Positions 1,233 through 53,696 of a stretch of DNA of 64,000 nt are shown one piece after another. The position numbers were made by a program, and so were the translations under genes. Numbering within the stretch: position 1 is the first letter of the stretch; each line of letters starts with the position of its first letter. Under the pieces are notes generated by a model. It worked only from the letters and a program-made list of their open reading frames with translations. It had not been told where the DNA came from and searched no databases. Origin of the DNA: Methanobrevibacter thaueri (lineage in GTDB: Archaea > Methanobacteriota > Methanobacteria > Methanobacteriales > Methanobacteriaceae); assembly GCF_015062915.1 (NCBI RefSeq), contig NZ_SUTJ01000003.1, positions 33,525 to 97,524 on the forward strand, read 5' to 3'.

Positions 1233-1233
1233 T

Positions 1234-7549: not shown

Positions 7550-7620
7550 ATTTTACTTTTTTTGTAAACTTTTTTTTAAATTCAAATATTTTTATATATG
7601 CTTAAAATCTAACTAATATC

Positions 7621-9285: not shown

Positions 9286-9327
9286 AATTATCTAAAAAAT
9301 AAGAAAAAAGTATGAAGTTAATCATAC

Positions 9328-10035: not shown

Positions 10036-10106
10036 ACTTTAACCTCCATTAAAATTTACATTTATTAATTATAATATAAAAATATATTTACATAAGGCGT
10101 GATAGT

Positions 10107-11365: not shown

Positions 11366-11443
11366 CACAATAACATTGTTTAGTTTAATTTAAATAATTT
11401 GTTTTTCAAAGGAATATACATAATTTGCATTGGAGGAATTTAA

Positions 11444-12701: not shown

Positions 12702-12821
12702 AAAAATCATATCTTGTAGATTATTATCACTAAAAGTTTTTCAATTGGATAATTTTTAAGTATATTTATATACTTTGTTTTAACTATTATTTATTATATG
12801 AACCTTTTATGATGTGATAAT

Positions 12822-13826: not shown

Positions 13827-13835
13827 TTAAACTAG

Positions 13836-14753
13836 CTATTTTGAAACGTCCAACATGTGTTGAACAGCTTTCCTAGATTTTTCAGCAACATCACTAGGCA
13901 ATGTGACTTCAGGAGCCTCATTGACAAGTGAATCTCTAATTTTTTCAAGGGTATGCAATTTCATGGTCTTGCAGATTGCCCCTTCAAGCAGAGGATATAG
14001 CTTTTTGCCCGGAACCTCTGAGTTGATTCTTGTAATCATGTCAACCTCTGTTCCAATGACAAATTCCTCCTTGTCGCTTTCGGCAATGTGTCTTAACATT
14101 CCACCGGTTGACATTACCACATCACATGCTTGCTGAACCTTAATGTCACATTCAGGGTGACAGATTATCTCAGCGTTAGGATATTCCTTTCTTTTAAGCT
14201 CAACATCTTCAATATGGAACAGTCTGTGAACGTAACAGTGACCGTCGCTAGGAACTGGAATGATTTCCTTATCGATTTTTTCTGCAACATGAGTTCCTAA
14301 GTTTTTATCCGGTCCGAATAGAATTTTATCATGAGGCAGGCTTTCAGCAACCTTGACTGCATTTGCGGAAGTGCATAATGTATCTGCATGCTGTTTTGCT
14401 TCAGCGATACTGTTCACATAAAGGATAACTCCTGCATCAGGATGTTCCTCTTTTGCCTTTAACAGTTCCTCTTCAGGAAGCATATGTGCCATTGGACATT
14501 CAGCTTCAAGGGTTGGAATGACTATTTTCTTGTCTGGATTCAATATGAATGCGGTTTCGGCCATGAAATCCACACCACAGAATATTACCAAGTCCTTGTC
14601 ATCAATTTCTGATGCTTTGATACATAATTCTAGTGAATCTCCAAGAAAATCAGCAATTTCTTGAACTTCTTTTGGCTGGTAGTTGTGTGCGAGGATTATG
14701 GCATTCTTTTCCTCTTTCAATCTTAAAATCTCGTCTTGAAGTGCACTACTCAT
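13836..14753 (-). CDS. nadA: Quinolinate synthase
   Basis: ILAHNYQ, FCGVDFMAE, CPMA, YVNS, CTSANA, CYVH, CHPEC, STGGM and CKTMK. Confidence 0.95.
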   Translation of the reverse strand: MSSALQDEILRLKEEKNAIILAHNYQPKEVQEIADFLGDSLELCIKASEIDDKDLVIFCGVDFMAETAFILNPDKKIVIPTLEAECPMAHMLPEEELLKAKEEHPDAGVILYVNSIAEAKQHADTLCTSANAVKVAESLPHDKILFGPDKNLGTHVAEKIDKEIIPVPSDGHCYVHRLFHIEDVELKRKEYPNAEIICHPECDIKVQQACDVVMSTGGMLRHIAESDKEEFVIGTEVDMITRINSEVPGKKLYPLLEGAICKTMKLHTLEKIRDSLVNEAPEVTLPSDVAEKSRKAVQHMLDVSK

Positions 14754-15501
14754 TCATCTCACCTAATTGATTAATATATTTTCTAATTTCATTTGTAATT
14801 ATTATCTTATATTCGTCTTTATCATTAAAGTCTTTTACCCAAAATGATACCTTAACCTTGCTTTGTTTAAAACTAATCTCTTTACTGTAAACATCTGGTT
14901 TGGGTTTGTCTGATATTTTAGGATAGCTCTCCATTCTTTCGATCAGGTATTTTCTGAAATCAACAATGTCAATGTCAAGCGGAAATCCTGCAAGAATATC
15001 GACTCTAAACATTTCGGGGTCTTTATATTCGAGATATTCATTGTTTGTCAATATTGAGTTCGGAACATGGTTCCTGACTCCATAATCATCTGTGATTACG
15101 GTTGACCTGAGAGAGACCTTTTCAACATAGCCCTTCTCTCCATTTATCTCAAGGGTATCCCCTACTTTTACGCTTCTTCCCAAAATCAAGAGCACTCCTG
15201 AAAAAAGATTTGAAATGATATCCTTTGCAGCAAAACTCACTGCAATACCTACAATACCTACACTCAACAAGGTTCCTGCAAGATTTATTCCAAAATACTG
15301 CAGTATCACCATCAATGCAATGAAATAAATCACATAAGTAATCATGTCTCTTACAAGATATGCTGCGGTCATGTCATCCTTAAATCTCTCTGCCTTATTC
15401 ATTACATATGCAATGAATCTAGTCATTAATAAAGTAACGCCTATTATAATCAGTATGCTGATTAAACTCATTGTGGTGTCGTTAATTACTGGGATATTCA
15501 T
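14746..15501 (-). CDS. mscS: Small-conductance mechanosensitive channel (MscS family)
   Basis: 3 TM helices; GIVGIAVSFAAKDIISNLFSG; VKVGD; VPNS. Confidence 0.88.
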   Translation of the reverse strand: MNIPVINDTTMSLISILIIIGVTLLMTRFIAYVMNKAERFKDDMTAAYLVRDMITYVIYFIALMVILQYFGINLAGTLLSVGIVGIAVSFAAKDIISNLFSGVLLILGRSVKVGDTLEINGEKGYVEKVSLRSTVITDDYGVRNHVPNSILTNNEYLEYKDPEMFRVDILAGFPLDIDIVDFRKYLIERMESYPKISDKPKPDVYSKEISFKQSKVKVSFWVKDFNDKDEYKIIITNEIRKYINQLGEMNE

Positions 15502-16397
15502 AGTACTATTTCCATTAAATCTTTAGCTATTTTAGTGTTGTCAAATATTTCACGGGCTTCTTTCAGCATGATATCAACATATTCCTTGCCGTATCTTGTA
15601 CTGATATGTGTCAGGACCAATTCCTTGCTGTTGGACTCCTTTGCAATGTATGCTGCATCGGTTGAAGTGGAATGGGCATGATCTTCAGCGTTTGTGCGCT
15701 CCTCTTCAACGAATGTGGATTCATGGATAAGCAATGTGCTGTCTTTTGCAAGCTCAATCATCTCCTCACAAGGTCTGGTGTCACCGGAATAGGTTATCTT
15801 AATTCCTTTTCTTGGCTTTCCTAGAACCTGTTCGGGCTTTATGATTCTGCCGTCAATTTCAACTTCCTCTCCATTATGAAGCTTTCCAAAGGCAGGTCCT
15901 ACTGGCACACCCAATTCAATGGCCTTTTCACGTAGGAAACGTGGCTTTTTCTTCTCTTCAATTGAATATGCAAGGCATGGAACATTATGCCTGACTCTTT
16001 GTGCTGTAATGATGTACTCTTCAGTTTCCTCGATGGTTTCTGTATCGATTTCAATCCATTCAACCGGAAAGTCAATAGCACAGTATCCTAATGAGTAGAT
16101 TGCATCCTTAATGTCATTCAATCCTTTAGGACCATAGATTGTCAATTCTGACTCTCTTCCATGCAGGCTCATTGACTGCAGGAGTCCGGGAAGGCCCAGG
16201 ATATGATCTCCATGATAATGAGTAATGAATATTTTGGATATTTTCATAGGACTTACTTTTGTGTAAAGTATCTGTCTTTGTGTCCCTTCACCACAATCAA
16301 ACAGCATCACATCCCCAAATGCCTTAAGGGCTATTGACGGATGATTCCTTTCTTTTGAATGGACTGCGGATGAAGTTCCTAAAAAAATTATTTCCAT
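15498..16397 (-). CDS. rnz: Ribonuclease Z
   Basis: FLGTSS, FDCGEGTQ, THYHGDH, YSGDT, HEST, AHST and LTHISTRY; GVPVGP exosite. Confidence 0.95.
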   Translation of the reverse strand: MEIIFLGTSSAVHSKERNHPSIALKAFGDVMLFDCGEGTQRQILYTKVSPMKISKIFITHYHGDHILGLPGLLQSMSLHGRESELTIYGPKGLNDIKDAIYSLGYCAIDFPVEWIEIDTETIEETEEYIITAQRVRHNVPCLAYSIEEKKKPRFLREKAIELGVPVGPAFGKLHNGEEVEIDGRIIKPEQVLGKPRKGIKITYSGDTRPCEEMIELAKDSTLLIHESTFVEEERTNAEDHAHSTSTDAAYIAKESNSKELVLTHISTRYGKEYVDIMLKEAREIFDNTKIAKDLMEIVL

Positions 16398-34832: not shown

Positions 34833-34975
34833 ACTGAAATGCACTATTTTCATTGAACTACCTCGACCTTGGATGAGGTCGGGGATTCTTACTTCACGGG
34901 CAGGTACTTTCCCACGAAAGTAGTTTTACCGTGCTATCCCCCCAGTTCCTGAGGTTCATTTTTGTTTTTTCTTGA
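34833..34975 (-). ncRNA. Predicted TnpB omega-RNA (reRNA) scaffold plus about 20-nt flank-derived guide
   Basis: Overlaps the tnpB 3' end. Contains GGAACTGGGGGGATAGC, a TACTTTC/GAAAGTA hairpin and the right-end hairpin, ending in TTCAA. 5' boundary is approximate. Confidence 0.65.
34861..34884 (-). other. IS right-end hairpin
   Basis: CCTCGACCT-TGGATG-AGGTCGGGG on the + strand. Confidence 0.8.
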
Positions 34976-36102
34976 AGAAGTCTGTATCCTTCTTGTTCTA
35001 TGTTTTTGGCGGCGTTTATGTCTCTGTCGTGTTGTGTTTGGCAGTGTGGACAGGTCCATCTTTTTTCTTCGCCTAAGTCTTTGTTGTAGTATCCGCATAC
35101 GTTACAATTTTTGCTGGATGGGTACCATTGGCTTATTTGGACGAATATTTTATCGTACCATTCGCATTTGTATTTTATCATTTCCACTAACTTGTACCAG
35201 CTGATATTCTGTAGTTTTTTGCTATAATCGGTTTCTTCGAATATTTTTTGTATGTCTAGTGTTTCCATACAGATTAGGTCGTATGTTTTGACTAGGTAGT
35301 TGCTTAATTTGTGGTATGCGTCTTTTATGCGGTTGTTTTTTCTTTGTATCCATTTGCCTAGTTTTTTTAGTGTTTTGTTGTAGCGGTTGCTGTTGTATTT
35401 TTTTCGTGATAGGCTTTTTTGGTATTTTTTAATCATTTTTTCCTCATGTGTCGTGTCTAAATTGGTTATCTTTAGTCCGTTGCTGAGGATTGCTAATGTT
35501 CTCATACCAAGATCAATTCCCACGCTCTTATAAGTATAATCCATTGTCTCTACTTCGGTTTCGATGTTGAAAACTGCATAAAAGTGACCGTGCTCCTTTT
35601 TAATGGTTACATTGTTTATTTTAGATTCTTTTAGTAATCTTTTATAATGGGTGCTGGTTCTGTAATGTACTTTTCCTAGTTTTGGTAAGACAATTGTATT
35701 GTCTTGTATTTTGATATTATTGTTGTTTTGTATTCTGAAACTTTGTTTTGGATTCTTTTTGGATTTGAATCTAGGATAATCGGATGTATTGTTGAAGAAT
35801 CTATTAAATGCAGTTATTAGGTCACGATAGACCTGTTGTAGGCTGCTTGACTCACTTTCATACAAGAAGGGATATTGTGTTTTCAACATGTTCAACATTG
35901 TATTGAATGTTTTCTGATTGCATTGTAACTTTGTGTATCCTTGTTGTTTAAACAATTCAAATGTTTCCTGATATTCTTCTAATAATTTATTCCAAGTTAA
36001 TCTGGCGTTATTAATATTCTGATTAATTTTATCCTTCATACTTTCATCAGGATACAATTTAACCACAATACCTTTATTAACCGTATTATACTCAGAAAAC
36101 AT
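34894..36102 (-). CDS. tnpB: RNA-guided endonuclease TnpB
   Basis: N-terminal KLYP HTH, PRFKSKK, RuvC-I GIDLG, RuvC-II METL, CNVC/CPHC zinc finger, RuvC-III DRDINAA. All three acidic residues are present. Confidence 0.95.
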   Translation of the reverse strand: MFSEYNTVNKGIVVKLYPDESMKDKINQNINNARLTWNKLLEEYQETFELFKQQGYTKLQCNQKTFNTMLNMLKTQYPFLYESESSSLQQVYRDLITAFNRFFNNTSDYPRFKSKKNPKQSFRIQNNNNIKIQDNTIVLPKLGKVHYRTSTHYKRLLKESKINNVTIKKEHGHFYAVFNIETEVETMDYTYKSVGIDLGMRTLAILSNGLKITNLDTTHEEKMIKKYQKSLSRKKYNSNRYNKTLKKLGKWIQRKNNRIKDAYHKLSNYLVKTYDLICMETLDIQKIFEETDYSKKLQNISWYKLVEMIKYKCEWYDKIFVQISQWYPSSKNCNVCGYYNKDLGEEKRWTCPHCQTQHDRDINAAKNIEQEGYRLLQEKTKMNLRNWGDSTVKLLSWESTCP

Positions 36103-36363: not shown

Positions 36364-39300
36364 ATGCACAAGTTTAATTTATCGTCATCTCAGAAGATGT
36401 TGTTGTTTTCTGAGATAAACAATCCTAACAACGACTCGTTTTATCTCAAATTCAGAAAAGATTATGATTTGAAGAATTTTGATAAGGTGAAACAGGCAAT
36501 TGAAAGTATTTCTAGAAATCATTTAAACTTAAAAATTAAATATGATGAAAAGGGGGATTTCAAGCAATATTACGATGATTTTGATGTAAATGTGGAATCA
36601 TTTGAAGTTGCTGATGAAAATTTGGACCAATTCATTGTCGATTACTTGGATGAACCTTTTGATGATGTTTTCGATTCTCCATTGTATAAGTGGGCAGTAT
36701 TGAAAACAGAATCATCAGCTGTTCTTATAGGTGTTGTACAGCATATCCTATTGGATGGTACTTCCTTATTTTCATTAATTCCTCAGGAGATTGAAAAATA
36801 CCTCCGTGATGGGGATTATGTTTCAGATGAGTATTCTTACGAAACATATGTTAATGATGAAATGGAGTATTTAAAGTCCCCTGAAGCCAGTGAGGATAAA
36901 AAATATTGGTTGAACATTTTAAAAGATTATTCTCAGGATTGGTATTCATTCGACAATTCTGAACTTGGTTATTATGAAGTGCTTTTGGATCAAATCCCTA
37001 ACTTCAAGTATTCCCCATTTGTCACTGCACTTGCACTTGAGTTTTTATATTTTGCAAAATCCAAAAAGAGCAACAAATTGTTTAAGGACATTGTGATGAA
37101 CACTTCCGTCCATGGAAGATACTTCGGACAAGGCGACGCTCTTGGAATGTTTGTAAATACAATTCCATTAAGGCTGACCTATGATGAGGATTTAACCTTT
37201 GATGAGTTGATGGTATATTCAAAATCAGTTTTAAAAGAGGGATTGGCACATGCTAAATTGCAGTTCAGTGAATACGCAACCGATTTGAGAAACGTAAACA
37301 TTGACCCGGACTGCATTTCAATGTTTTCCATAGTGTCCAATTCCACAGACTATGATTCAAAATTCCTGACTTTGCAAAAGGACATCAAGTTCCCATTGCA
37401 CTTCAGGATAAATAAGAACTATTCAGATAAAAACGGCCTGCAATCCATATTTGTGGAATATGACAAATCCTGTTTCAGCCATCGTGAAATTGAATCAATT
37501 GCAAATGGTTTAAGGGATTTGCTAAGGCAGATAATGGATGATTCCTCCAAAAAATGTAAGGATTACACTGTTGAAGTGGTTGATTTCTTCAATGCCGAAA
37601 ACTACTACAACAACATGATGAATTCATTTGACAATCCGACAGCAATCTCTCCAGATATGAGTGGAGACAATGTAATATTCTCTGAACTTTCCAAACCTAT
37701 AGATGATGATAAATTAAAGAACTTGTCAAAACAATATAATCTGTCTAAGGAAAGAATGCTGTTGTCTGTGTTCATGTTTAACTTGACAAAATTCTCATTT
37801 TCAAAAGATATTCTTGTTGCCTACAATAAACAGGCTTGTGGATATCATTTCAACACAGATTTATCTGTTATTGAATACTTGGAGGACTTTAAAAAGTATT
37901 TCAAGTATTATTCAAATTATCCTTTGTTAAACAATAAAAAACTCAATTTTGAAAGTGAAATATTGTTTTTCACTGATGAATACGATGCCAAGGACTATAA
38001 ATTCGTATTTAATTATGAAAGTGGAAAAATCAACATCAGCTATGATGAGTCATTCTATTCAAAAGAACTAATTGAAACATTTCTGGAATCAATGGAAGTC
38101 TTATTGGATAGATTCGAATCAGGCGATAATTTATTGAAAGATATCTCCATAAGAAGACAACTTGAATATGATGAGGACTTCAAGATTGAACTTGCAAATG
38201 AAGGTGTTGTAAACAAGGTCTTTGACATGGCTGTAGCTCAAAACCCTCAAAAAACAATACTCATTGCAGAGGATGGGGAAGTAACATATGGGGAATTGGA
38301 TAAAAAAGCCAATAGGATAGCTAATGCATTAATCAAAAGAGGAGTGAACATTGAAGATAGGGTAATGTTCATGATGAGAAGAAACAGTGACCTGATAGCT
38401 GCAGTTTTAGGTATTGTCAAGGCAGGAGCCGCTTTTATTCCAATTGACCCTAAATATCCTAAAAACAGAATCAATCAAATTCTGGATGACAGTGATTCCA
38501 AATTCGTCATAACAAGTTCAGAAATAGGTTATGATGGAGAAAACAGAATAGATATTGATGATTTGCTTGATGAAATTGATGATTCAAATCCTGAAATCGA
38601 GTTAACGCCGGATAACTTGTGTTTCATGATTTATACTTCAGGTTCAACCGGAAAACCTAAGGGAGTGATGATTACTCATAGGGGTATCACAAATTATGTT
38701 GCAAATGTTGAGGAGAATGTTCCGATTTATGAGCTGAACCATAAGTGTAACAAGTTCATTTCAATTTCAACAGTTTCTTTCATTGTATTTTTGAGAGAAG
38801 TGTTTGGTACAATACTCAATGGATTGCCAGTGGTGTTTGCAAACGATGAAGAATCAATAGATCCATTGAAATTGGTTGAATTGTTCAAAAAAACCGGAGC
38901 TCAAGGATTTGGCTCCACACCAACAAGACTGCTCGAATACATTCAGCTTGAAGAGATTCAGGATGTTGTTAAGGATTGCACTGTGATAATTGTCGGCGGT
39001 GAAGGATTCCCTCCTATATTATATGAAAGGCTGTCAAAATACACTGATGCAGACATCTACAACTCTTACGGCCCAACAGAGGTCACCATTGCATCACACT
39101 ACAAGCTGATTGACTCATCTCAAGTCACCGCAGGATGGAAGATGCTCAATGTGGTTGATAAGATAATGGATATCGATGGAAATCAACTTCCTCCATATGT
39201 CATGGGCGAAATCTATGTTGGTGGTGCAGGAATTGCAAGAGGATATCTGAATAATGAGGAGCAAACCCAAAAGGTCTTTTTAACACTTAATGACATTCCA

Positions 39301-42300
39301 TATTACAATACTGGAGATTTGGGTAAAAAAGATGCTAACGGCGAGCTATATGTTCATGGGAGAAATGATACTCAAATCAAGCTTAGGGGCTTAAGAATCG
39401 AATTGTCTGAAATTGAAGGGGCAATTGCCAATTATGATGGCATTTCCCTTTCAAAGGTCGTTGTCAAAAAAGTCAATTCAGTGGAGCATTTATGCGCCTA
39501 CTTTACAGCCGTAACCGATATAGATATTGATGATTTAAAGCAACATTTAGTTGATTCAATTCCTGAGTATATGGTTCCATCTTATTTCACACAACTTGAC
39601 GAGTTTCCAAAAACTCCAAATGGCAAGACAGACTTTAAAAACTTGCCTGACCCTGAAATTGATGTTGATGATTTTATTAAACCAAGAAATGAGATTGAAC
39701 AGGAGTTATTCAATATTGTATCCGAGCTCTTGAACATTGAGGAATTTGGTGTAAACACTGATTTATTCAGCATAGGATTGACTTCATTGTCTGTAATCAA
39801 ACTGACATCTGCAATTTACAATAACTTGAATGCACAGTTAAACGTTACTGAAATACTTAATTATAAGACAATTGAAAGAATCGCTTCTGAAATTAAGATA
39901 GATGATGCATCATCAAGTGATGTGCAGGAATTATATCCTTTAACCTCAAATCAACTTGGAGTTTACTTTGACTGCATTAAAGATCCTGAAAACACTGCAT
40001 ATAACCTTCCAAAGAAAATGGAATTTAGTGAAGGCATTGATGCAGATAAACTCAAATTATCAATTATTGAATCCATTGAAAATCATCCATATTTAAAAAC
40101 AAGAATTGTAATGGAAAACGGTGAAGTTTACCAACAAAGAAGGGATAACCTGAAAGTTGATGATTTAATAGAAATGGTTGATGATGCTAATGTGGACGAG
40201 TTTGTAAAGCCGTTCAAGCTTGATGAGGGGCCATTGTTCCGCTTCAAGATAGTTGGAAATTCAATGTTGCTTGCTGATTTCCACCACATTATCGTTGATG
40301 GAACTTCATTAAACATTCTATTTGATGAGATAGCTAAAATCTATGATGGAAAGGATTATGAGATTGAGGAGATTGATGGATTTGAATATTCATTGAATGA
40401 AAAGAAAACAGAACAATCCAGCTTGTATGAAGAGGCTAAACTATTTTTCTCCAATAAGGTCAAGGAATTTGATGATGCCACATTGATTCCGCAGGACATC
40501 AATGGTGATGAGTCTGAGGGTAGTGCCGCAATGGATGATATCTTCTTGGGTAAGGAATCCATAGATGAGTTCTGCGCAAAATCCGGCATATCCCAAAACA
40601 ACTTGTTCCTGGCTGCGACCTCATTCGTCATAAACAAGTTTGTTTATAATCGTGAAATATTGATTGCAACAATCACTAACGGCAGATTCAATCCAAACCA
40701 GCAAAAGACATTGGCAATGATGGTTAAGACATTGCCTTTATCATTGAAATTGAATTCAGATTCAAACATTAAGGAATACCTTGACTACATTAACGGCGAG
40801 TGGTTAAACGTATTGGGTTACTCATCATATCCTCTAACAGAAATCTCAAACGAGTTCGACATCACTCCTGAGATATTGTACGCATACCACGGCAAAATCA
40901 TTGAGGATATTGAAATCGGAGGAATGAATGTCGAAAGGCAGTCAATAGATTATGAAGGATTGAAATTCAAGATAAATATTAATGTTGTCGATGTCGGAGA
41001 CCAATATAGGATTTTCTGCGAATACAATGACCAATTATACTCTAAAACTTTAATTGACACATTCCTTAACTGTATTAGGATTGTCCTGAATAAATTCCAA
41101 AGTTTCGATGAAAAAACATTGATGAAGGATATTTCAATAATCGAAAATGATGACTGGGGAGTTGACGATTTAGAGTATGATGAAATTCCAGAGGAAAGAT
41201 TAAACAAGATATTTGAAAATCAGGTGGAAATGCATCCTGACAGGGTTGTCTTATATGCCACCGACGGGGAATTCACATATGAGCAATTGAATGAAAAGGC
41301 CAATAGGATTGCACATGGCCTTATCAAAAGGGGTGTAGGTCCTGAGGACAGGATAATGTTTATTCTTAATAGGGACAGTAACACAATAGCATCAATTTTC
41401 GGTATCCTGAAATCAGGTGCTGCATTTATTCCAGTGGACTCAGAATATCCTTCTGAAAGAATTGAGCATGTATTGACAGACAGTGAGTCAAAATACATAA
41501 TTGTGGATGATGTAATTGAGAAAAAATCCATAGATCTGTCCCAATATGAGGATAACTTATTGGATGTCCATGAACTTCTAAAAGAGGAAGACACTTCAAA
41601 CCCCGACCCTGACGTTCATGCCAATAACATGGCTTATCTCATCTACACTTCAGGTTCCACAGGACTTCCAAAAGGAGTAATTCTTGAACATGGAAACATT
41701 GCAAACTTCGTTTATCCTGACCCTAGAAATGTATGTACCTATGAACTGGTGCATAATCTTGAAAAAGAGGATTATAAGGTATTGTCCACTACAACAGTTG
41801 CTTTCGATGTGTTCCAGCAGGAGATTATGGGATCCCTATTGAACGGGGTGCCGATGGTATTTGCCAATGACACTGAATACAAGGACCCAATCGAAATGAT
41901 GAGTCTGATTCACAGGACAGGCGCTAATGTCTACATTGCAACCCCATCACGTTTGCTGCAATATCTGGAAATCGAAGCGATGCAGGAGACAATGTACGGA
42001 TTCAAGGTATACATTCACGCTGGAGAACCATTCTCAGCCAGATTATATGAATTGCTTTCACAAAACTCCAATGGAAAACTATTCAACATGTACGGGCCAA
42101 CAGAGACTACAGTCTACTGTAACGGTCAGCTGCTTGAAAGTTCAGACATTCACATTGGAAAAGAGCTTTTCAACGTACATGAAATGGTTATGGATTTCGA
42201 TTCAAACCCATTGCCTCCAAATGTCATTGGGGAAATGTACATTGCAGGAAAGGGTGTTTCAAGAGAGTACCTGAACCGTCCTGAGAAAAATGAGGAGTCA

Positions 42301-44169
42301 TATGAAATAATTAATGGAATCCGATTCTATCACTCAGGGGACTTTGTTAAAGTCACTGAAGATGGGAATTATTATGTGTTCGGAAGAATGGATAACCAAA
42401 TCAAGCTTAGAGGCTTAAGGATTGAAATAGGTGAGATTGAAGTTGGTCTTTCAAACTTCCCTGGAATCAAATCCGTTGCGGTTGTCGTTAAAAAGATTAA
42501 GGGCAATGATCACTTATGTGCATATTTCACTGTTCATGATGATTACAAGGATGAAAACCGTGAGGAAAATGGATATTCAATTGATATTGATGAGTTAAAG
42601 GCTTCACTTGCTGAAAAATTGGTATATTACATGGTTCCAACAGTCTACATGGAACTTGATGAAATGCCGCAAACCGTAAATGGCAAAACAGACTTGAGGA
42701 ACTTGCCTGAACCGGTTCTAATCACTGAATATGTTGCTCCTGAAAATGAAATTGAAGCATTCTTTGCAAATCTCTTTGCAGAAATTTTAGGACTTGATGA
42801 GGTAAGCGCCACCGATAACTTCTTTGAAATTGGTGGAACTTCACTTCTAGTTACTAAAATTACCATGGAAGCTATAAACAGAAATTATAACCTGAATTAT
42901 GGGGACGTATTCTCAAATCCAACTCCAAGGGCATTGTCAGACTTTATCCTATCTGATGAGTCATTGGAGAAGAAATCAGAAATGGCTTATGACTATTCAC
43001 AAATCAACAGCCTGCTTGAGAAAAACAATCTTGAAACAATCATTAATGGTGAAATCCAAGACAGTGTAGGTAATGTGCTGTTGACTGGTGCCACAGGATT
43101 TTTAGGAATACATGTATTGCGTGAATTACTTGAAAATGAGGATGGTGAAATTTACTGTTTCATCAGATCCAATAAGGTTCTAAGCGGTGCTGAAAGATTG
43201 AAATCACTTCTCTTCTATTATTTCTCAGATGAGTACAACGAGGCATTTGATGAAAGGCTGCACATTATCGAGGGAGACATCACAAACTTTGAGGACTTTG
43301 AAAAGCTTGTGCATGAAAAAATAGATACTGTCTTCAACTGTGCCGCCAACGTAAAACACTTCTCATCAGGAACAGATATTGAAGATATCAACCTTGGGGG
43401 TGTAGTCAATGGACTCAAGTTTGCTAAAATGAAGAATGCGAAATATGTTCAGATTTCAACCTACAGTATTGCAGGTGAAAGTATTGACAATTATCCTCCG
43501 GTTGACGTTAAATTTACGGAAAATGATCTATTCATTGGTCAGGCAGTGGATAACCAATATCTAAACAGTAAATTCCTTGCGGAACGTGCCGTTTTGGAAG
43601 CTGCCGTTAATGATGATTTGGATGTTAAAATCATGCGTGTAGGTAACCTGATGGCCAGAAGTTCAGACAGTGAATTCCAAATCAACTTCGTAACAAACGG
43701 TTTCATCAATCGTCTTAAGGCGTTCGTGACAATAGGTAAAATGCCATATTCCATGCTTATGAATCCTGTTGAATTCTCACCGATTGACATTACAGCTAAG
43801 GCCATTGTGGGATTGTCCAAGACTCCTAAGGAATGCACCATTTTCCATCCATATGATTATCACAATATCAGCTTCGGAGACATAATTGATATAATTAGGC
43901 CGTTAGGATTGACAATTGATCCTGCTGAAGATGATGATTATCAAAAAGCATTGGATGAGGCTCTTGCAGACAAAACAAAACAAGAGGGAGTTTCCGGTTT
44001 AATCACTTCTATTGGTTCGGGTAAGGTTAAAAAGATATGGCTTCCTGTAGACAATTCATACACAATCCAGGCATTATATCGTTTGGGAATTACCTGGCCA
44101 TTCCTTTCAGAGGAATACGTTTATAATTTTGTAAAATATTTGGATGAACTTGATTTCTTTAGTGTTTAG
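36364..44169 (+). CDS. Non-ribosomal peptide synthetase, C-(half C)-A-T-C-A-T-R
   Basis: C1 QHILLDG (36739), A1 YTSGSTGKPKG, T1 GLTSL (Ser 39784), C2 HHIIVDG (40282), A2 YTSGSTGLPKG, T2 GGTSL (Ser 42841), reductase TGATGFLG (43084) with YLNSK. Confidence 0.95.
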   Translation: MHKFNLSSSQKMLLFSEINNPNNDSFYLKFRKDYDLKNFDKVKQAIESISRNHLNLKIKYDEKGDFKQYYDDFDVNVESFEVADENLDQFIVDYLDEPFDDVFDSPLYKWAVLKTESSAVLIGVVQHILLDGTSLFSLIPQEIEKYLRDGDYVSDEYSYETYVNDEMEYLKSPEASEDKKYWLNILKDYSQDWYSFDNSELGYYEVLLDQIPNFKYSPFVTALALEFLYFAKSKKSNKLFKDIVMNTSVHGRYFGQGDALGMFVNTIPLRLTYDEDLTFDELMVYSKSVLKEGLAHAKLQFSEYATDLRNVNIDPDCISMFSIVSNSTDYDSKFLTLQKDIKFPLHFRINKNYSDKNGLQSIFVEYDKSCFSHREIESIANGLRDLLRQIMDDSSKKCKDYTVEVVDFFNAENYYNNMMNSFDNPTAISPDMSGDNVIFSELSKPIDDDKLKNLSKQYNLSKERMLLSVFMFNLTKFSFSKDILVAYNKQACGYHFNTDLSVIEYLEDFKKYFKYYSNYPLLNNKKLNFESEILFFTDEYDAKDYKFVFNYESGKINISYDESFYSKELIETFLESMEVLLDRFESGDNLLKDISIRRQLEYDEDFKIELANEGVVNKVFDMAVAQNPQKTILIAEDGEVTYGELDKKANRIANALIKRGVNIEDRVMFMMRRNSDLIAAVLGIVKAGAAFIPIDPKYPKNRINQILDDSDSKFVITSSEIGYDGENRIDIDDLLDEIDDSNPEIELTPDNLCFMIYTSGSTGKPKGVMITHRGITNYVANVEENVPIYELNHKCNKFISISTVSFIVFLREVFGTILNGLPVVFANDEESIDPLKLVELFKKTGAQGFGSTPTRLLEYIQLEEIQDVVKDCTVIIVGGEGFPPILYERLSKYTDADIYNSYGPTEVTIASHYKLIDSSQVTAGWKMLNVVDKIMDIDGNQLPPYVMGEIYVGGAGIARGYLNNEEQTQKVFLTLNDIPYYNTGDLGKKDANGELYVHGRNDTQIKLRGLRIELSEIEGAIANYDGISLSKVVVKKVNSVEHLCAYFTAVTDIDIDDLKQHLVDSIPEYMVPSYFTQLDEFPKTPNGKTDFKNLPDPEIDVDDFIKPRNEIEQELFNIVSELLNIEEFGVNTDLFSIGLTSLSVIKLTSAIYNNLNAQLNVTEILNYKTIERIASEIKIDDASSSDVQELYPLTSNQLGVYFDCIKDPENTAYNLPKKMEFSEGIDADKLKLSIIESIENHPYLKTRIVMENGEVYQQRRDNLKVDDLIEMVDDANVDEFVKPFKLDEGPLFRFKIVGNSMLLADFHHIIVDGTSLNILFDEIAKIYDGKDYEIEEIDGFEYSLNEKKTEQSSLYEEAKLFFSNKVKEFDDATLIPQDINGDESEGSAAMDDIFLGKESIDEFCAKSGISQNNLFLAATSFVINKFVYNREILIATITNGRFNPNQQKTLAMMVKTLPLSLKLNSDSNIKEYLDYINGEWLNVLGYSSYPLTEISNEFDITPEILYAYHGKIIEDIEIGGMNVERQSIDYEGLKFKININVVDVGDQYRIFCEYNDQLYSKTLIDTFLNCIRIVLNKFQSFDEKTLMKDISIIENDDWGVDDLEYDEIPEERLNKIFENQVEMHPDRVVLYATDGEFTYEQLNEKANRIAHGLIKRGVGPEDRIMFILNRDSNTIASIFGILKSGAAFIPVDSEYPSERIEHVLTDSESKYIIVDDVIEKKSIDLSQYEDNLLDVHELLKEEDTSNPDPDVHANNMAYLIYTSGSTGLPKGVILEHGNIANFVYPDPRNVCTYELVHNLEKEDYKVLSTTTVAFDVFQQEIMGSLLNGVPMVFANDTEYKDPIEMMSLIHRTGANVYIATPSRLLQYLEIEAMQETMYGFKVYIHAGEPFSARLYELLSQNSNGKLFNMYGPTETTVYCNGQLLESSDIHIGKELFNVHEMVMDFDSNPLPPNVIGEMYIAGKGVSREYLNRPEKNEESYEIINGIRFYHSGDFVKVTEDGNYYVFGRMDNQIKLRGLRIEIGEIEVGLSNFPGIKSVAVVVKKIKGNDHLCAYFTVHDDYKDENREENGYSIDIDELKASLAEKLVYYMVPTVYMELDEMPQTVNGKTDLRNLPEPVLITEYVAPENEIEAFFANLFAEILGLDEVSATDNFFEIGGTSLLVTKITMEAINRNYNLNYGDVFSNPTPRALSDFILSDESLEKKSEMAYDYSQINSLLEKNNLETIINGEIQDSVGNVLLTGATGFLGIHVLRELLENEDGEIYCFIRSNKVLSGAERLKSLLFYYFSDEYNEAFDERLHIIEGDITNFEDFEKLVHEKIDTVFNCAANVKHFSSGTDIEDINLGGVVNGLKFAKMKNAKYVQISTYSIAGESIDNYPPVDVKFTENDLFIGQAVDNQYLNSKFLAERAVLEAAVNDDLDVKIMRVGNLMARSSDSEFQINFVTNGFINRLKAFVTIGKMPYSMLMNPVEFSPIDITAKAIVGLSKTPKECTIFHPYDYHNISFGDIIDIIRPLGLTIDPAEDDDYQKALDEALADKTKQEGVSGLITSIGSGKVKKIWLPVDNSYTIQALYRLGITWPFLSEEYVYNFVKYLDELDFFSV

Positions 44170-44180: not shown

Positions 44181-45908
44181 ATGCATGAACGTAATTATGA
44201 GTTATTGAGAAGTAAGTTTACTGAGTTTTTCCTGCCTACATTGTTCACTTCCATGGCAGGAAACATCTGTCTTTTTGTAGATGGATTGATTGTGAGTTTC
44301 TTGCTGGGTGCAGCAAACCTTTCGGCTATTCAGATTGTTGCTCCTTTAATCACCTTTGTCAATCTCATTTACTGGATGATCGGATTGGGGGGCAGTGTTC
44401 TCTGCTCTGTTGCAAAGGCCGAATTCGATGATGAAAAGAGCAATAGCTACTTTTCGGTGGCAATTATATCTCTTATAACCCTAGGCATAGTGATAGCAGT
44501 TGTAGGTCTTATATTTTCAGGCCCAATTGCCCAGTTGTTATGTGCTTCACAGCCTGAATTGATTCCGGATGTCACTAGCTATTTCATTTTATTGGTTATT
44601 GGAATGCCATTTTTATGTTATATGATGAGCTTATCATACTTCATAAGGGCCGATGGAATTCCTACACTGCCATTCAGGGCGATATTGTTGGCTAATATTA
44701 TTAACATAGTCTTTGATATCATATATCTCCAATTATTTAATATGGGAATAGGAGGAGCAGCATTGTCTACCTCAACAGGGTACTTAACAGGTTCAATATT
44801 AATTTCATTTTACTTCTACAAGTCCGAACGAACACTACAATTTATAAAATTGAAAGTGACTTCATTTCTGTCTTATCTTAGGCAGATTGTCACTTCTGGA
44901 TTCTCATCCTCATCAACCCAATTATACTTGACATTAAAGCTATTGATTATAAACTCATTGATTGGAATATATGTTGGAAACGCAGGTCTTGTAGCATTTG
45001 GTATTTGCTATAACAGTCTGTTCATATTGTACATCTTTTTAATCGGGACAGCTCAGACAATGTCTCCAATCGTGTCAGTTTACTATAAGGAAGAGGATTA
45101 TTCCGGAGTGAATTACATTATTCGCAGGTCGTTGAAAATAGTCTTTGCTTCAAGTCTTGCATTGGCGGTTTTATTCATAGTCTATCCTCAATCATTGTTG
45201 ATGCTGTACAGTGTCAAGGACCCGTCTTATGTTCTTGTTGTCTTAAACGCAGTAAGGATATTTGCAATAAGCTATGTTGGAACTGCAATAACATTCCTAT
45301 ACACTTTCTATTCTCAAGCGATACAGAAAAATCAATTGTCAACAATCATTTCATTGCTTGAGGGATTAATATTTCCGATTGGATTTGCAACAGTATTGTC
45401 CTTTGTGTTTGGAGGAAATGGAATTTGGATTTCATTTGCATTGGCTGAACTCTTTACAATACTTTTCATATTTGCATATTCAAGGCACTTAAGCAGGAAA
45501 ACCGATGGGGAGTACACCGGATTTTTCATCAACAAGCACAATGACGACACAAAGGTATTTGAGTATACCATAAGAGGCAATATTGACGAGGCTGTGGAAT
45601 TATCACAAGAAGTTCAAAATTATCTAGAAGGAAACAAATCCGCAACGGTGGTCAGCATGGCCATTGAGGAAATGCTTGTAAATATCATCAACACCAATGA
45701 TGAGGTCGGCACAATTGATGTTATCGTCAGAAACAATGAGGACAATATTCTGATTTCAGTCAAGGATACAGGAATCGATTTCAATCCTGTTGTTGAAAAT
45801 GAGAATTTGGAATTTGACAACATAAGTGTCTTAAATAAAATTGCGGATAAAATCGATTATTCCAGAGTTTTGGGATTGAACAGCACTGTAATCACAATTA
45901 AAAATTAA
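44181..45908 (+). CDS. MATE efflux transporter fused to a C-terminal RsbW-like (HATPase_c) domain
   Basis: About 12 TM MATE body (VDGLIVSFLLG, GIGGAALST). Tail EEMLVNII...VKDTGIDFNP. Starts 11 nt after the NRPS stop. Confidence 0.88.
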   Translation: MHERNYELLRSKFTEFFLPTLFTSMAGNICLFVDGLIVSFLLGAANLSAIQIVAPLITFVNLIYWMIGLGGSVLCSVAKAEFDDEKSNSYFSVAIISLITLGIVIAVVGLIFSGPIAQLLCASQPELIPDVTSYFILLVIGMPFLCYMMSLSYFIRADGIPTLPFRAILLANIINIVFDIIYLQLFNMGIGGAALSTSTGYLTGSILISFYFYKSERTLQFIKLKVTSFLSYLRQIVTSGFSSSSTQLYLTLKLLIINSLIGIYVGNAGLVAFGICYNSLFILYIFLIGTAQTMSPIVSVYYKEEDYSGVNYIIRRSLKIVFASSLALAVLFIVYPQSLLMLYSVKDPSYVLVVLNAVRIFAISYVGTAITFLYTFYSQAIQKNQLSTIISLLEGLIFPIGFATVLSFVFGGNGIWISFALAELFTILFIFAYSRHLSRKTDGEYTGFFINKHNDDTKVFEYTIRGNIDEAVELSQEVQNYLEGNKSATVVSMAIEEMLVNIINTNDEVGTIDVIVRNNEDNILISVKDTGIDFNPVVENENLEFDNISVLNKIADKIDYSRVLGLNSTVITIKN

Positions 45909-46010
45909 GTGATATTTAAGGATGATGTTAACACATTATCCAATTCTTTTTTTTCGATTAAATTAATTATTTATATTTTCATTAACATAATTTTCATTGA
46001 GTTAATTAAC

Positions 46011-46868
46011 ATGTCTGGTCAAAAATCATTTATTGCGAAAATAGAGGAAAGCATTTTAAAGGCAACCAAACCAAAATATATGGACTTTTCAGATGAGGTA
46101 AGTCACTTTTTATCCGATAGGCAAAATGATCCTAAGCCTCCAAGTGGCCTTTTCAAGAGTTTTGATTTCAATGGTATGGAAGTCTTCAAAATAGGTGATG
46201 AAACTTGCAAAAACACAATACTGTATCTACATGGGGGAGCATACGTTAATGAAATAAATTATCAGCATCTATTATATTGCTTTTTGCTTTCACGAAAATT
46301 AGATGTCCAAGTGTTGTTGCCAGTTTACCCACTCGCTCCTTTACATAAAGCGAAGGAAACTTTTGACCTGCTTCGAGAATTTTATGAAACCCTAACCTCA
46401 AGGGATAATTTGATACTTATGGGCGATTCCGCAGGAGGAGGACTTGTTTTTTCATTCTGTCAGTATCTCAATACAATCGGTCTGGCGCAACCCGACAAGA
46501 TCATAACATTTTCCCCATGGATTGACATTTCAATGAGCAACGGGCCGTATGACAATGAAAACGACCCGATTTTAGGTGAAATCGGCCTGAGGGAAATCGG
46601 GAAATCATGGGCAGGTGACTGGGATAGCAAAGACTATCGCGTAAGCGCCACATATGGAGATAACAGCGGATTGCCGAGAACCCTTATTTTTGCCGGAACA
46701 AATGAGATATTCTACAAGGACATCAAGATGTATGTTGAAAAGCTAAAAAGAGATGATGTTGATGTCAAGTTCATAGAAGGCGATGGACTATTCCATATCT
46801 ATCCGTTGTTCCCGATGCCTGAGGCAAAAAGCGCATTTAAAGAAATAAAAAAAGAAATAATTAAATGA
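46011..46868 (+). CDS. HSL-family alpha/beta hydrolase (esterase)
   Basis: YLHGGAY oxyanion motif, GDSAGG, NEIF and LFHIYP. Start moved to ATG 46011. Confidence 0.88.
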   Translation: MSGQKSFIAKIEESILKATKPKYMDFSDEVSHFLSDRQNDPKPPSGLFKSFDFNGMEVFKIGDETCKNTILYLHGGAYVNEINYQHLLYCFLLSRKLDVQVLLPVYPLAPLHKAKETFDLLREFYETLTSRDNLILMGDSAGGGLVFSFCQYLNTIGLAQPDKIITFSPWIDISMSNGPYDNENDPILGEIGLREIGKSWAGDWDSKDYRVSATYGDNSGLPRTLIFAGTNEIFYKDIKMYVEKLKRDDVDVKFIEGDGLFHIYPLFPMPEAKSAFKEIKKEIIK

Positions 46869-51180: not shown

Positions 51181-51813
51181 TTAAAACAAGTCTTCAATAT
51201 TATATTCAACCGCTTTTTTGACATTATGCTTGGAGCAAGCTGCCAATTTATAGTTTTCAACATCAAATAAGCTGAATTTCAGATTATTTTCATTGCCTTT
51301 TAATGTGATTTCATCCCCGATCAGTATTTCAAACTGATCCAGTTCCAGATTGAATCCCAAACCAGTGTATTTCATATAGCTTTCCTTTAAAACCCAATAT
51401 CTAAAAAATTCGTTTGAAGGATTGTGGGATTTCATAATGCTTTCATATTCTGAGTTGAAGAAGTAGTGTTTGGCTATGTCCAAATCGATTTCCCCATCAA
51501 CATATTCAACATCAACGCCGACTTCCATATCGGATATTGCACAAGCTACCATTTTACGTGAATGGCTCAAATTGAAATGAATGTCTTCATGGCTTGATAT
51601 GTATGCCTTGCCGTATTTTCCGGTTTCGAAAGTGGGGTTTGTGATGTTTTCCTCTCTAAGCAAGGTATTCAAAAGAAGATATGCTCCGGCGCTCAGTTTC
51701 TTGTCCTTTTCGAACCTATAAAAATCCACTTTTGATTTTCTATGTTCCGGGAGCAATTCGTATGACCTTGTCAAATCCAAATCGTCGACATTGCAGTAAG
51801 CTATTTTAATCAT
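51181..51813 (-). CDS. Sfp-type 4'-phosphopantetheinyl transferase
   Basis: YGKAY, FNLSHS, VGVDVE and FFRYWVLKESYMKYTGLG. Confidence 0.93.
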   Translation of the reverse strand: MIKIAYCNVDDLDLTRSYELLPEHRKSKVDFYRFEKDKKLSAGAYLLLNTLLREENITNPTFETGKYGKAYISSHEDIHFNLSHSRKMVACAISDMEVGVDVEYVDGEIDLDIAKHYFFNSEYESIMKSHNPSNEFFRYWVLKESYMKYTGLGFNLELDQFEILIGDEITLKGNENNLKFSLFDVENYKLAACSKHNVKKAVEYNIEDLF

Positions 51814-51846
51814 TTTTTAATCTTCAATGTTAAAATTAGGTATTGT

Positions 51847-52224
51847 TTATTCCACTTTCTTGGTGATCTTGAGATGGTTTTCGTCGGCAATCCTATCATA
51901 TTCAATATCATCTGAAAGCTCTTTTGTCAGATGAATTCCCAAACCGCCTACCTCAGCATCTTCAATGCTTTCCGGCATTTTAGGGTCTTCATTTAAAAGA
52001 GGATTGAATTCAACTCCATCATCAATAAACTCAAGTGTCAATATGGAGTTTTCAAAACTAGAGTTGACCCTGATTGAATCGGTCTTTGAATAGTTGACAA
52101 TGTTTACAAAGACCTCTTCCAGAATCAGATCAACCTGAAAATCCTGTTTTCCAATAATTTCATTGATGAAATCATTCAATTTGTATAATTCCTCAATTTG
52201 AGGAGCCAATTCCAATGAATTCAT
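51847..52224 (-). CDS. RsbW/SpoIIAB-like anti-sigma-factor Ser kinase (HATPase_c)
   Basis: N-box EEVFVNIVNY, G1 DDGVEFNP, G2 GGLGI; ATGA overlap with the STAS gene. Confidence 0.88.
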   Translation of the reverse strand: MNSLELAPQIEELYKLNDFINEIIGKQDFQVDLILEEVFVNIVNYSKTDSIRVNSSFENSILTLEFIDDGVEFNPLLNEDPKMPESIEDAEVGGLGIHLTKELSDDIEYDRIADENHLKITKKVE

Positions 52225-52520
52225 TCTATCTTTAATATTTTATCAAATCCAGACATCCTGAAAATTTCATTAATGGTTTCGTTCACGTTTTTGATAACCA
52301 TTGGGGTGTCTGTGGATTTTAATTTTTTCTGGGTTGCTATCAGCACTCTCAAACCGGCACTGGAAATGTATTCCACTTTCTCAAAATCAATTACTAATGA
52401 GTCAAATTTTCCAAGCTCTTCATTAATTTCCTTTTCCAAGTCCTGTGAAGTCAAGGTATCAATTCTACCCTCTACTGATAATGTTAAATCCTTGTTATCA
52501 TAATCTTTTAAAATATTCAT
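52221..52520 (-). CDS. STAS-domain anti-sigma-factor antagonist (RsbV/SpoIIAA-like)
   Basis: VEGRIDT, IDFEKVEYISSAGLRVL with the phospho-acceptor Ser, and FRMSGF. Confidence 0.92.
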   Translation of the reverse strand: MNILKDYDNKDLTLSVEGRIDTLTSQDLEKEINEELGKFDSLVIDFEKVEYISSAGLRVLIATQKKLKSTDTPMVIKNVNETINEIFRMSGFDKILKIE

Positions 52521-52652
52521 AATATCACTGGTTTAATATATTTTTATGTAAGTTTAAATATTTTGTTGAAATTTCCTGTAGATATTCCTTTCGGTGTTGA
52601 ACACTATCTCTGAATCAAAAAAATAAGTGGAAAAAGAGATAATTGATTAAAG

Positions 52653-53696
52653 TTATCTCATGTATAAAATAAACTTACCGAATTTAGGGATTCTATAAAT
52701 GATTGCGGCCGCCACATAACTGAAGAAAATCAGTAAAACCCATAAAATCAGAGCCTTGACAGGTTCTGTGAATGGCAATCCAACAATCAAAGGTAATAAT
52801 GGGAGTCTGAATAGGTTATGTATTAAAAATACTGCAAATGAGTATTTTGACAATACTTGGACTCCACTATAGAATCTGACGCTTCCTCTTCTGGAACACA
52901 GTTCGAACAGTGCGAATGATCCTGTCAGGATGAATGGGAACTCATACCATAGGAAGAAATTGTATCCTCTGATGAATGCATAGTACTGGAAGACTACACA
53001 AATTAAAAATGACACGAGTGCAAGCAATCTGAATTTATTGGTTGAATACTTCTTGAAAACTCCTTTCTTGACCAAGTATCCCAGTATAATGTAAATTCCA
53101 TATACTCCTCCACTGAATCCTAAACTGAATTGGATTGAAATGCCTTTAATCCCCTGCATGTCAAACAGTAATGTGATGAATGGAATCGCAAATGCCAAAA
53201 GTGAAAATACGATTGTGGCCTGATTGATTGTTTCCGGTTTGAAATTATCCAATGCGCTTGCAACAAACGGCATGGAAAGATACATTCCAATAATCATCGG
53301 CATATACCACATGTGGCTGAAGAATAGGTTTCCAGCTTCGGTAAAGTTGACGGACTGGCTTCCAACAGCAACAAACTGCAGGCTAACTGCATAAATCACG
53401 GTCCAAAGGATAGTGACTATAATCAGTCCCTTACAGTTTTTGCTCCAGAACTTGCGGACACGCTCGTCATTATAGCTTCTGTCAAGTAACAGATAACCTG
53501 TAATCATTAAAAAGAACGGAACCCCAATACGTCCAATAAACAGTGAAATGAATTGAAAAACTCTTGAAAATAATGTATAGTGCATTATTGCATCAGATGA
53601 TATTATATAAATACCATCTGTTGCATGAATGTACAGTACTGTCAGGATAGCTATTGCACGTACAAGATCAATCCATTCGACTCTATTTTTACTCAT
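52653..53696 (-). CDS. Acyltransferase-3 family membrane O-acyltransferase
   Basis: RVEWIDLVRAIAILTVLYIH, GVPFFLMITGY, HMWYM and YSFAVFLIH; about 10 TMs. Confidence 0.88.
   Translation of the reverse strand: MSKNRVEWIDLVRAIAILTVLYIHATDGIYIISSDAIMHYTLFSRVFQFISLFIGRIGVPFFLMITGYLLLDRSYNDERVRKFWSKNCKGLIIVTILWTVIYAVSLQFVAVGSQSVNFTEAGNLFFSHMWYMPMIIGMYLSMPFVASALDNFKPETINQATIVFSLLAFAIPFITLLFDMQGIKGISIQFSLGFSGGVYGIYIILGYLVKKGVFKKYSTNKFRLLALVSFLICVVFQYYAFIRGYNFFLWYEFPFILTGSFALFELCSRRGSVRFYSGVQVLSKYSFAVFLIHNLFRLPLLPLIVGLPFTEPVKALILWVLLIFFSYVAAAIIYRIPKFGKFILYMR

Follow-up and report, generated by a model that had tools for sequence, protein, structure and literature searches.

Nonribosomal peptide synthetases (NRPSs) of methanogens have been on record since 2010, none of them with an identified product. 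The closest described systems are the mru_0068 cluster and the mru_0512-0516 cluster of Methanobrevibacter ruminantium M1, which comprise genes for a MatE efflux protein, a STAS antagonist, an anti-sigma kinase, a SpoIIE phosphatase and a phosphopantetheinyl transferase (PPTase) (Leahy 2010, PMC2812497). A homolog from M. millerae SM9, sm9_0755, is a protein of 2605 amino acids that is reported to be 81% identical to mru_0068 (Kelly 2016, PMC4987999). Both papers list the specificity-code residues of the adenylation (A) domains without interpreting a missing aspartate (PMC2812497, PMC4987999), and no product of the mru_0068-type family is named in the literature searched (PMC8024701). Here, we describe a computational analysis of an NRPS of this type from Methanobrevibacter thaueri, encoded within a stretch of 64,000 nucleotides (assembly GCF_015062915.1, contig NZ_SUTJ01000003.1, positions 33,525 to 97,524 of the forward strand; hereafter the window, to which all coordinates refer). 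We present evidence that its first A domain, A1, in which the aspartate that binds the alpha-amino group of the substrate is replaced by isoleucine, has a pocket conserved in about 50 species of methanogens and very probably activates an acid without an alpha-amino group.

Dipeptide aldehyde/pyrazinone synthetases offer a second point of comparison. Gut clostridial clusters of this kind were reportedly described by Guo in 2017. In pyrazinone-type synthetases each of the two A domains loads an amino acid, and it is the free N-terminal amine that drives cyclisation. Like the window NRPS, AusA, the gut clostridial enzymes and the ruminopeptin synthetase of R. bromii have two modules and reductive release and are gut-associated, and their condensation (C), adenylation, carrier (T) and reductase (R) domains are arranged as A-T-C-A-T-R or C-A-T-C-A-T-R, with aldehydes as likely products, as here (PMC12327764). 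The window NRPS has the R domain and the two modules of a pyrazinone synthetase, but its A1 is without the hallmark of an amino-acid-loading domain.

Architecture of the window NRPS

The NRPS gene, taken from the list of open reading frames and their translations, is 7.8 kb long and encodes 2601 amino acids (Table 1). Pfam hits to Condensation, AMP-binding, PP-binding and NAD_binding_4 give the domain order C-A-T-C-A-T-R. In this two-module order, in its length (2601 versus 2605 residues) and in its partner genes, the protein resembles mru_0068 and sm9_0755; its assignment to the mru_0068-type clusters was judged from the published description (PMC2812497). Unlike in both described loci, in the window a TnpB gene is found upstream of the NRPS gene, and some 7 kb separate the latter from the genes for regulation and the PPTase downstream. 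This displaced set of PPTase, kinase, STAS and Acyl_transf_3 genes matches the separate mru_0512-0516 cluster of M. ruminantium (PMC2812497). A domains without the aspartate are a known kind; what is new here is the particular code, within a known, uncharacterised family of methanogen NRPSs.

A1 lacks the aspartate that binds the alpha-amino group

The A4 motif of A1 reads S-F-I-V-F-L-R-E (residues 805-812, nucleotides 38776-38799), and that of the second A domain, A2, reads A-F-D-V-F-Q-Q-E. A HMMER alignment to both LgrA modules in the PDB places Ile807 (codon ATT) in the column of Asp235, and so, independently, does a MAFFT alignment to a GrsA-PheA segment whose numbering reproduces the canonical DAWTIAAICK code; in A2 this column holds Asp1815, whose GAT codon starts at 41806. 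The codes extracted from the MAFFT alignment are IVRGIGSIAK for A1 and DVQIIAMVYK for A2. The original prediction, made from the letters of the window, had pointed to the same isoleucine and aspartate codons and had arrived by eye at the identical A1 code. It had also named a realignment with aspartate at position 235 as the result that would overturn it. Such a realignment was attempted and rejected: there is no aspartate between YELNHKC... and ...FLRE, none lies within 10 residues of the position, a shift of more than 10 residues would be needed, and the two methods agree.

Asp235 and Lys517 are conserved in A domains that load alpha-amino acids, Asp235 in all of them (PMC12283262, PMC11355689). 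An aliphatic residue at position 235 marks domains for non-alpha-amino acids, such as StsA (I306) and McyG (V227), in agreement with the significance that had been attached to a hydrophobic residue at this position (PMC11253843, PMC10949194, PMC13643306). A1 keeps the lysine, as Lys1088 of a PNGKTD motif, in all 48 orthologous domains described below; the aspartate is replaced by isoleucine in 48/48. The literature on position 235, together with the purifying selection on this isoleucine described below, makes it very probable that the substrate of A1 has no alpha-amino group.

In other respects A1 looks like an active adenylation domain, as judged from its motifs and its predicted structure. 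Its Pfam AMP-binding match has an E value of 2e-146, and motifs A3 (SGSTGxPKG), A5 (NxYGPTE), A7 (Y-x-TGD), A8 (GRxDxQxKxRGxRIE) and A10 (PxxxNGK), which characterise NRPS adenylation domains of the ANL superfamily, are all intact. Likewise intact are the carrier serines, both histidine motifs of the C domains and the reductase motifs. An AlphaFold2 model of A1 has a mean pLDDT (predicted local distance difference test score) of 89.9, and a Foldseek comparison of this model with the PDB, which shows the fold only and has no power to tell substrates apart, matched the LgrA A domain with a template modelling (TM) score of 0.89, and also 1AMU. Furthermore, gut metatranscriptome assemblies contain the whole NRPS gene. 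In one run depleted of ribosomal RNA (rRNA), contig depth, a rough measure, was about 10-12 across the NRPS and matE genes, but fell to about 1-2 in the pyruvate kinase gene on the upstream side and to 1-3.5 in the hydrolase gene on the downstream side; in RNA runs other than this rRNA-depleted one, carry-over of DNA is possible.

Conservation of the A1 code

A scan of one genome per species gave 56 loci. The ortholog set comprises 48 A1 domains from Methanobrevibacter and Methanosphaera species, which share 60-95% identity. Only one of the ten code positions varies among them, being occupied by I or V, whereas of all alignment columns 36% are invariant (hypergeometric P ~6e-4 for nine invariant code positions), giving the pattern IVRG[IV]GSIAK. 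The codons behind these residues vary synonymously: I235 is encoded by ATT, ATC or ATA, and R239 by AGA, AGG or CGT. By this sequence comparison the isoleucine of A1 is under strong purifying selection, which argues that it is a feature of specificity and not of decay.

The A2 code, by contrast, differs among the orthologs, with at least 12 codes represented. From an invariant A1 code and variable A2 codes it follows that the first unit would be the conserved part of the product. In four loci (L023, L026, L028 and L029) the C1-A1 region is 71-82% identical to that of the window NRPS, whereas T1-C2-A2 is only 42-49% identical. Thus, downstream modules appear to have been exchanged behind a fixed first module.

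The wider distribution of these residues was taken from a search of 1.84 billion representatives, which was dominated by giant multi-module synthetases and served for counts of the residue at 235 and for finding the protein P0213, discussed below. Asp235 is present in 811 of the 857 A domains that 150 representative NRPSs contain, and Ile235 occurs together with Arg239 only within the A1 clade. Sister clades keep the Ile/Arg pair, in the code IARSTGS[IV]AK of P0059 (from a Methanosphaera metagenome-assembled genome, MAG), P0061 (from a contig) and P0213, and also in the code IMRTIGAFLK.

Arg239 and the charge of the substrate

The nearest relatives of A1 that retain Asp235 carry glutamate or aspartate at positions 239 and 278 (codes DTEEVGSIAK and DVDDFGSITK), which is the published pattern of arginine-type codes (PMC12283262). 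In A1, whose scaffold is otherwise similar (xGSIAK), the corresponding residues are arginine and glycine, amounting to an inversion of charge. In addition, the alpha-aminoadipate (Aad) code DPRHLALLAK carries Arg239 (PMC12283262). Given the charge inversion and the arginine of the Aad code, it is reasonable to suppose that the substrate presents an anionic group to Arg239, and the earlier suggestion that this arginine hints at a second acidic group gains in plausibility. On balance, we regard an anionic substrate as probable. The resemblance to Aad-type codes, which serve substrates with a second carboxylate or side-chain carboxyl, extends to Arg239 but not to the positions before it: at 235 those codes have Asp (or Glu) where A1 has Ile, and at 236 they have Pro where A1 has Val (PMC12283262). 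A literature search on dicarboxylate-activating A domains returned nothing relevant. His333, considered as a second clade-specific basic residue, was dropped, as it is also present in the Asp235-containing third module of P0213.

The N-terminal condensation domain and its variants

The region upstream of A1, of which the original prediction had made no use, bears on whether the substrate carries a nucleophile. C1 (residues 1-395) retains the catalytic histidine in a QHILLDG motif, or HHILLDG in distant orthologs. Its identity across 39 full-length orthologs is 39-91%, mostly 71-91% and 39-56% in the three most divergent, and in 38/39 of them it contains no stop codon. A search for relatives of C1 found detectable homologs only in orthologs of the window NRPS. 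A comparison with PDB sequences, made to assign C1 to a subtype, gave weak matches to both elongation and starter C domains. C1 is followed by a vestigial half-C domain (residues 399-605): by BLASTP, residues 399-604 align with residues 151-428 of the C2 segment (residues 1330-1607 of the NRPS).

The origin of this remnant is suggested by P0213, whose layout is degenerate C, A (Ile235), T, intact C (HHIIFDG), A (IARSTGSVAK), T, C, A, T, R. In its first module (residues 1-1000) the C domain lacks the catalytic histidine (SSIILNS) and the A domain has YGSSE in place of YGPTE; P0213 thus contains two consecutive modules without the amino-binding aspartate. The half-C remnant of the window NRPS is collinear with the intact C domain located just before the IARSTGSVAK domain, and the window NRPS as a whole is collinear with P0213 once the first A-T pair and the N-terminal lobe of the C domain after it are taken away. 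Because of this collinearity, the half-C domain looks like a scar left by the internal loss of an A-T pair and one half of a C domain. A metagenome scan for further P0213-like loci returned nothing closer than 34%.

Some orthologs dispense with C1. The NRPSs of three related species (L030, L032 and L033; for example L032, positions 9437-16021, 2194 amino acids) start at the half-C domain and keep the code IVRG[IV]GSIAK. A three-module variant, found in a Methanosphaera MAG (L031, positions 985-10602, 3205 amino acids) and in the representative P0145, also starts at the half-C domain, and the first module of L031 keeps the same code. At every orthologous locus A1 lies in the first module, always after a C domain or a C remnant.

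The Ile/Arg domain of P0213 lies in an elongation module and would accept a chain from upstream, so its substrate must carry a nucleophile. This sister domain, together with the conservation of C1, favours a hydroxy acid and an ester over a plain cap. The ester that had been raised as one possible product is therefore the one we favour, on the combined evidence of an intact C1, the half-C scar, the orthologs without C1 and the sister domain in an elongation module.

Proposed substrate and product

Our preferred reading is that A1 is a specialised domain, fixed across gut and rumen Methanobacteriaceae, that activates a non-alpha-amino acid, with an anionic 2-hydroxy acid as the best guess; we give it a probability of about 0.5. 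The hydroxyl group, taken on its own, we propose more tentatively, its chances being somewhat below even. In such a pocket Ile235 would take away the anchor for an amine, and Arg239, at the floor of a roomy cavity lined by Gly278, Gly301, Ser322 and Ala331, would pair with the anionic group of the substrate. Candidate acids would be alpha-hydroxy acids with an acidic side chain, for example malate, 2-hydroxyglutarate or sulfolactate. No precursor-making enzyme is conserved in the neighbourhood, either in the window or across about 50 loci, and the acid is therefore probably a common metabolite or one taken up from the gut.

The assembly line would then proceed in five steps. A1 would adenylate the acid and load it onto T1; C1, where present, would acylate the hydroxyl of the acid; C2 would form an amide with a variable amino acid supplied by A2; the R domain would release an N-capped amino aldehyde or alcohol; and MatE would export the product. 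In the window NRPS the variable amino acid would be proline-like, and the proline part of the N-acyl-proline product proposed earlier is strengthened by the presence in A2 of V236 and Q239, a proline hallmark found in 59/71 proline codes (PMC12283262). Because the first unit would have no amine, the aldehyde would not cyclise to a pyrazinone.

This mechanism is the one by which the first A domain of enniatin synthetase (EnSyn A1) and engineered TycA load 2-hydroxy acids directly, without a ketoreductase (KR), the ester being formed by the adjoining C domain (PMC11253843). The window NRPS is likewise without a KR, as the original prediction had stated: none was detected by Pfam in the protein itself or among the genes conserved around it. 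It differs from the EnSyn/TycA type, which has Gly or Ala at 235 and accepts neutral side chains, in the larger Ile235 and in Arg239; the EnSyn-type family has very few characterised members, and no native bacterial or archaeal structure of an alpha-hydroxy-acid A domain is available (PMC11253843). Aryl-acid domains of the DhbE/EntE type, with Asn235 and a divergent A5 motif, are not matched by A1, which has Ile235 and a canonical NSYGPTE (PMC11253843).

Several points weigh against an anionic 2-hydroxy acid. Known hydroxy-acid domains have Gly or Ala, not Ile, at 235, and McyG, with Val there, adenylates L-Phe in vitro, so that the aspartate is not absolutely required for an amino acid (PMC11253843). 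The Stachelhaus logic that links code to substrate is a correlation, and the orientation of Arg239 was taken from PheA by homology. The argument for a nucleophile comes from one protein with a sister code and is held loosely. Finally, C1 is dispensable and might be an orphan, as the NRPSs of L030, L032 and L033 keep the code without it.

The consequences of a fixed first unit are practical. If this unit is invariant, probably not an amino acid and probably acidic, the search space for mass-spectrometric discovery of the product becomes much smaller, pyrazinone-type products are then not to be expected, and a concrete enzyme assay is available. About 50 genomes of Methanobacteriaceae from rumen and gut, counted at species level, contain the cluster, such that its product could matter for methanogen ecology and is possibly relevant to work on methane mitigation. 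For NRPS enzymology, A1 would add a specificity code that current predictors cannot assign. A bolder proposal, which we consider rather doubtful, is that IVRGIGSIAK represents a new class of specificity, its substrate being an anionic 2-hydroxy acid that might come from the cofactor metabolism of methanogens (such as 2-hydroxyglutarate or sulfolactate), and gives rise to O-acylated or depsi-capped amino aldehydes in the widespread mru_0068-type synthetases of rumen methanogens. If true, this would be the first defined class of archaeal nonribosomal products, in which the acidic head is constant and the aldehyde residue differs between species.

Alternative substrates of A1

Among the alternatives, the one that survives best, although we think it unlikely, is that A1 loads an anionic acid without a nucleophile, such as succinate or glutarate, both common in the rumen and gut. 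This acid would serve as a simple cap, C1 would be a leftover, and the product would be an N-succinyl-type amino aldehyde. The constant position of A1 in the first module, the retention of the code in orthologs without C1, the suitability of Arg239 for a dicarboxylate and the lack of precursor genes nearby are all consistent with such a cap; in addition, C1 could have become an orphan through the internal deletion suggested by the half-C domain and the collinearity with P0213. However, the catalytic histidine of C1 is kept, and its lack of stop codons in all but one full-length ortholog and its high identity in most would be odd for a useless domain of 395 residues. Moreover, the sister domain in P0213 must take a chain from the module upstream, which a nucleophile-free acid could not accept. 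These two points lead us to prefer a hydroxy acid over a cap.

Less probable again is that A1 activates an acidic amino acid through its side-chain carboxyl, so that the unit would be an isopeptide of the gamma-Glu or beta-Asp type and the activated carboxyl would have no amine beside it. Methanogen cofactors and pseudomurein often contain gamma-glutamyl links, and the microcystin synthetase codes for iso-Glu and methyl-iso-Asp also have Arg239. The distal amine of such a substrate would supply the nucleophile for C1 and for the elongation module of P0213, and Arg239 would hold the distal alpha-carboxylate, as in the Aad code DPRHLALLAK (PMC12283262). Against this, the Aad code and the D[AP]R codes found among the relatives of A1 all have Asp235, and an additional acidic residue able to hold a distal ammonium group is missing from the pocket signature of A1 (34 residues).

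A1 could also be a canonical keto-acid domain of the StsA/CesA type, known from depsipeptide synthetases, for instance for 2-oxoglutarate, with an alpha-ketoamide as product or a separate reductase acting on the keto group. The glutamate-type code DAKDLGVVDK has Lys239, which the basic residue of A1 resembles. Ile235 is the same residue as I306 of StsA, whose substrate likewise has no alpha-amine (PDB 6ULX; PMC11253843), and the rule for such domains is an aliphatic residue at 235 with the remainder of the code like that of the matching amino acid (PMC10949194). In StsA, however, Met415 replaces the proline of G-P-T-E, and the mutation M415P abolishes activity (PMC11253843). In A1 this proline is retained (Pro904 of NSYGPTE, aligned with LgrA Pro483) and is invariant in 48/48 orthologs. 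There is, in addition, no KR in the module, where domains of the StsA/CesA type have one, or in the neighbourhood, A1 differs from those domains in Arg239 as well, and a keto acid would offer no nucleophile to C1 or to the elongation C domain of P0213. Thus, with its proline kept and no KR, A1 resembles a non-amino-acid loader but falls outside the canonical keto-acid class. On the retention of this residue (Pro325) and the missing KR, the canonical keto-acid assignment was downgraded to an improbable one (PMC11253843), and of the original prediction the non-amino-acid substrate remains likely while the canonical alpha-keto acid does not.

Four distant relatives (P0042, P0047 in locus L058, P0060 and P0093), with the codes IMRTIGAFLK and NIQVFGGSG, have YGQSE as their A5 motif, with Gln in place of Pro. 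Loss of this proline being the second hallmark of keto-acid domains, these relatives, of which one has Arg239, may genuinely load keto acids.

It is very unlikely that A1 loads an ordinary alpha-amino acid, its amine held by backbone carbonyls, to yield a normal N-acyl dipeptide aldehyde as in the gut clostridial relatives. The window NRPS has the architecture of N-acyl dipeptide aldehyde synthetases. In favour of such a substrate are the in vitro activity of McyG towards L-Phe (PMC11253843) and the classical association of an N-terminal C domain with N-acylated peptides (PMC2812497). Yet Asp235 is described as conserved in all domains that activate alpha-amino acids (PMC12283262, PMC11355689), it is present in 811/857 related A domains and in A2 of the same protein, and Ile235 and Arg239 are jointly fixed under purifying selection. 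That A1 is catalytically dead, with T1 loaded in trans or skipped, has the loss of Asp235 alone in its favour and is hardly credible given the intact motifs, the invariant pocket with synonymous codon turnover, the confident model with a canonical fold and the coverage of the gene by metatranscriptome contigs.

Gene neighbourhood and distribution

The coordinates of the NRPS, its domains and the neighbouring genes are collected in Table 1. Across about 50 loci the most frequent partner gene is matE (45), followed by genes for the STAS antagonist (38), the anti-sigma-type kinase (28), the SpoIIE phosphatase (25) and the PPTase (22). The PPTase, kinase and STAS genes that are displaced in the window lie beside the NRPS gene in most orthologous loci. 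The Abhydrolase_3 gene is a less regular companion, found with the cluster at only 11 of about 50 loci, and in one run its RNA contig depth was below that of the NRPS and matE genes.

Table 1. Positions of the NRPS gene, its domains and neighbouring genes in the window
Feature	Position	Strand	Remarks
TnpB / IS605 OrfB	34894-36102	-	Pfam; directly upstream of NRPS
NRPS gene	36364-44169	+	order C1 - half-C remnant - A1 - T1 - C2 - A2 - T2 - R
C1, complete N-terminal condensation domain	36364-37548	+	His motif QHILLDG 36739-36759; full-length alignment with C2
Half-C remnant (C-terminal half of another condensation domain, vestigial)	37558-38178	+	without His motif; BLASTP to C2
A1 adenylation domain, code IVRGIGSIAK	38221-39633	+	alignments to LgrA and GrsA
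A1 key codons	Ile235 38782-38784; Arg239 38794-38796; Lys517 39625-39627	+	alignments
A1 A5 motif NSYGPTE	39061-39081; Pro 39073-39075	+	motif search
T1 carrier domain, GLTSLS	39703-39888	+	Pfam PP-binding, aa 1114-1175; presumed pantetheinyl Ser 39784-39786
C2 condensation domain	39922-41223	+	Pfam Condensation, aa 1187-1578; HHIIVDG 40282-40302, kept in orthologs
A2 adenylation domain, code DVQIIAMVYK (Pro-like)	41281-42753	+	Asp235 41806-41808
T2 carrier domain, GGTSLL	42781-43008	+	two Pfam PP-binding stretches
Terminal thioester reductase (R) domain	43072-44166	+	Pfam NAD_binding_4 and Epimerase, aa 2238-2481; GATGFLG, YLNSK
MatE efflux protein	44181-45908	+	Pfam MatE; directly after NRPS
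alpha/beta hydrolase (Abhydrolase_3)	45909-46868	+	begins at MatE stop codon
PPTase	51181-51813	-	Pfam
Anti-sigma-type kinase, HATPase_c_2	51847-52224	-	Pfam
STAS antagonist	52221-52520	-	Pfam
Acyl_transf_3 membrane acyltransferase	52653-53696	-	follows PPTase/kinase/STAS set (51181-53696)

The nearest matches of the NRPS in public genomes are MAGs of rumen and gut Methanobrevibacter, with up to 95% identity, and the identical NRPS protein is encoded on contigs of many faecal metagenomes. The closest non-archaeal relatives are in Clostridia MAGs. One further contig (L057, positions 10001-13960) carries bacterial housekeeping genes (for RecD2, 1-deoxy-D-xylulose 5-phosphate reductoisomerase and an M50 protease) together with a heavily deleted remnant of the cluster. 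The remnant consists of C1, an A domain with IVRGIGSIA (49% identical), T-C, R and MatE and, being so heavily deleted, gives no architectural information; it may be a chimera of the assembly or may reflect gene transfer between methanogens and bacteria.

The TnpB stretch has a contig depth several-fold above that of its neighbours, and TnpB is therefore probably multi-copy. Contigs that carry the identical NRPS differ beyond TnpB, where genes for pyruvate kinase, a major facilitator superfamily (MFS) transporter or exonuclease VII are found, which suggests rearrangement or mobility at the TnpB site.

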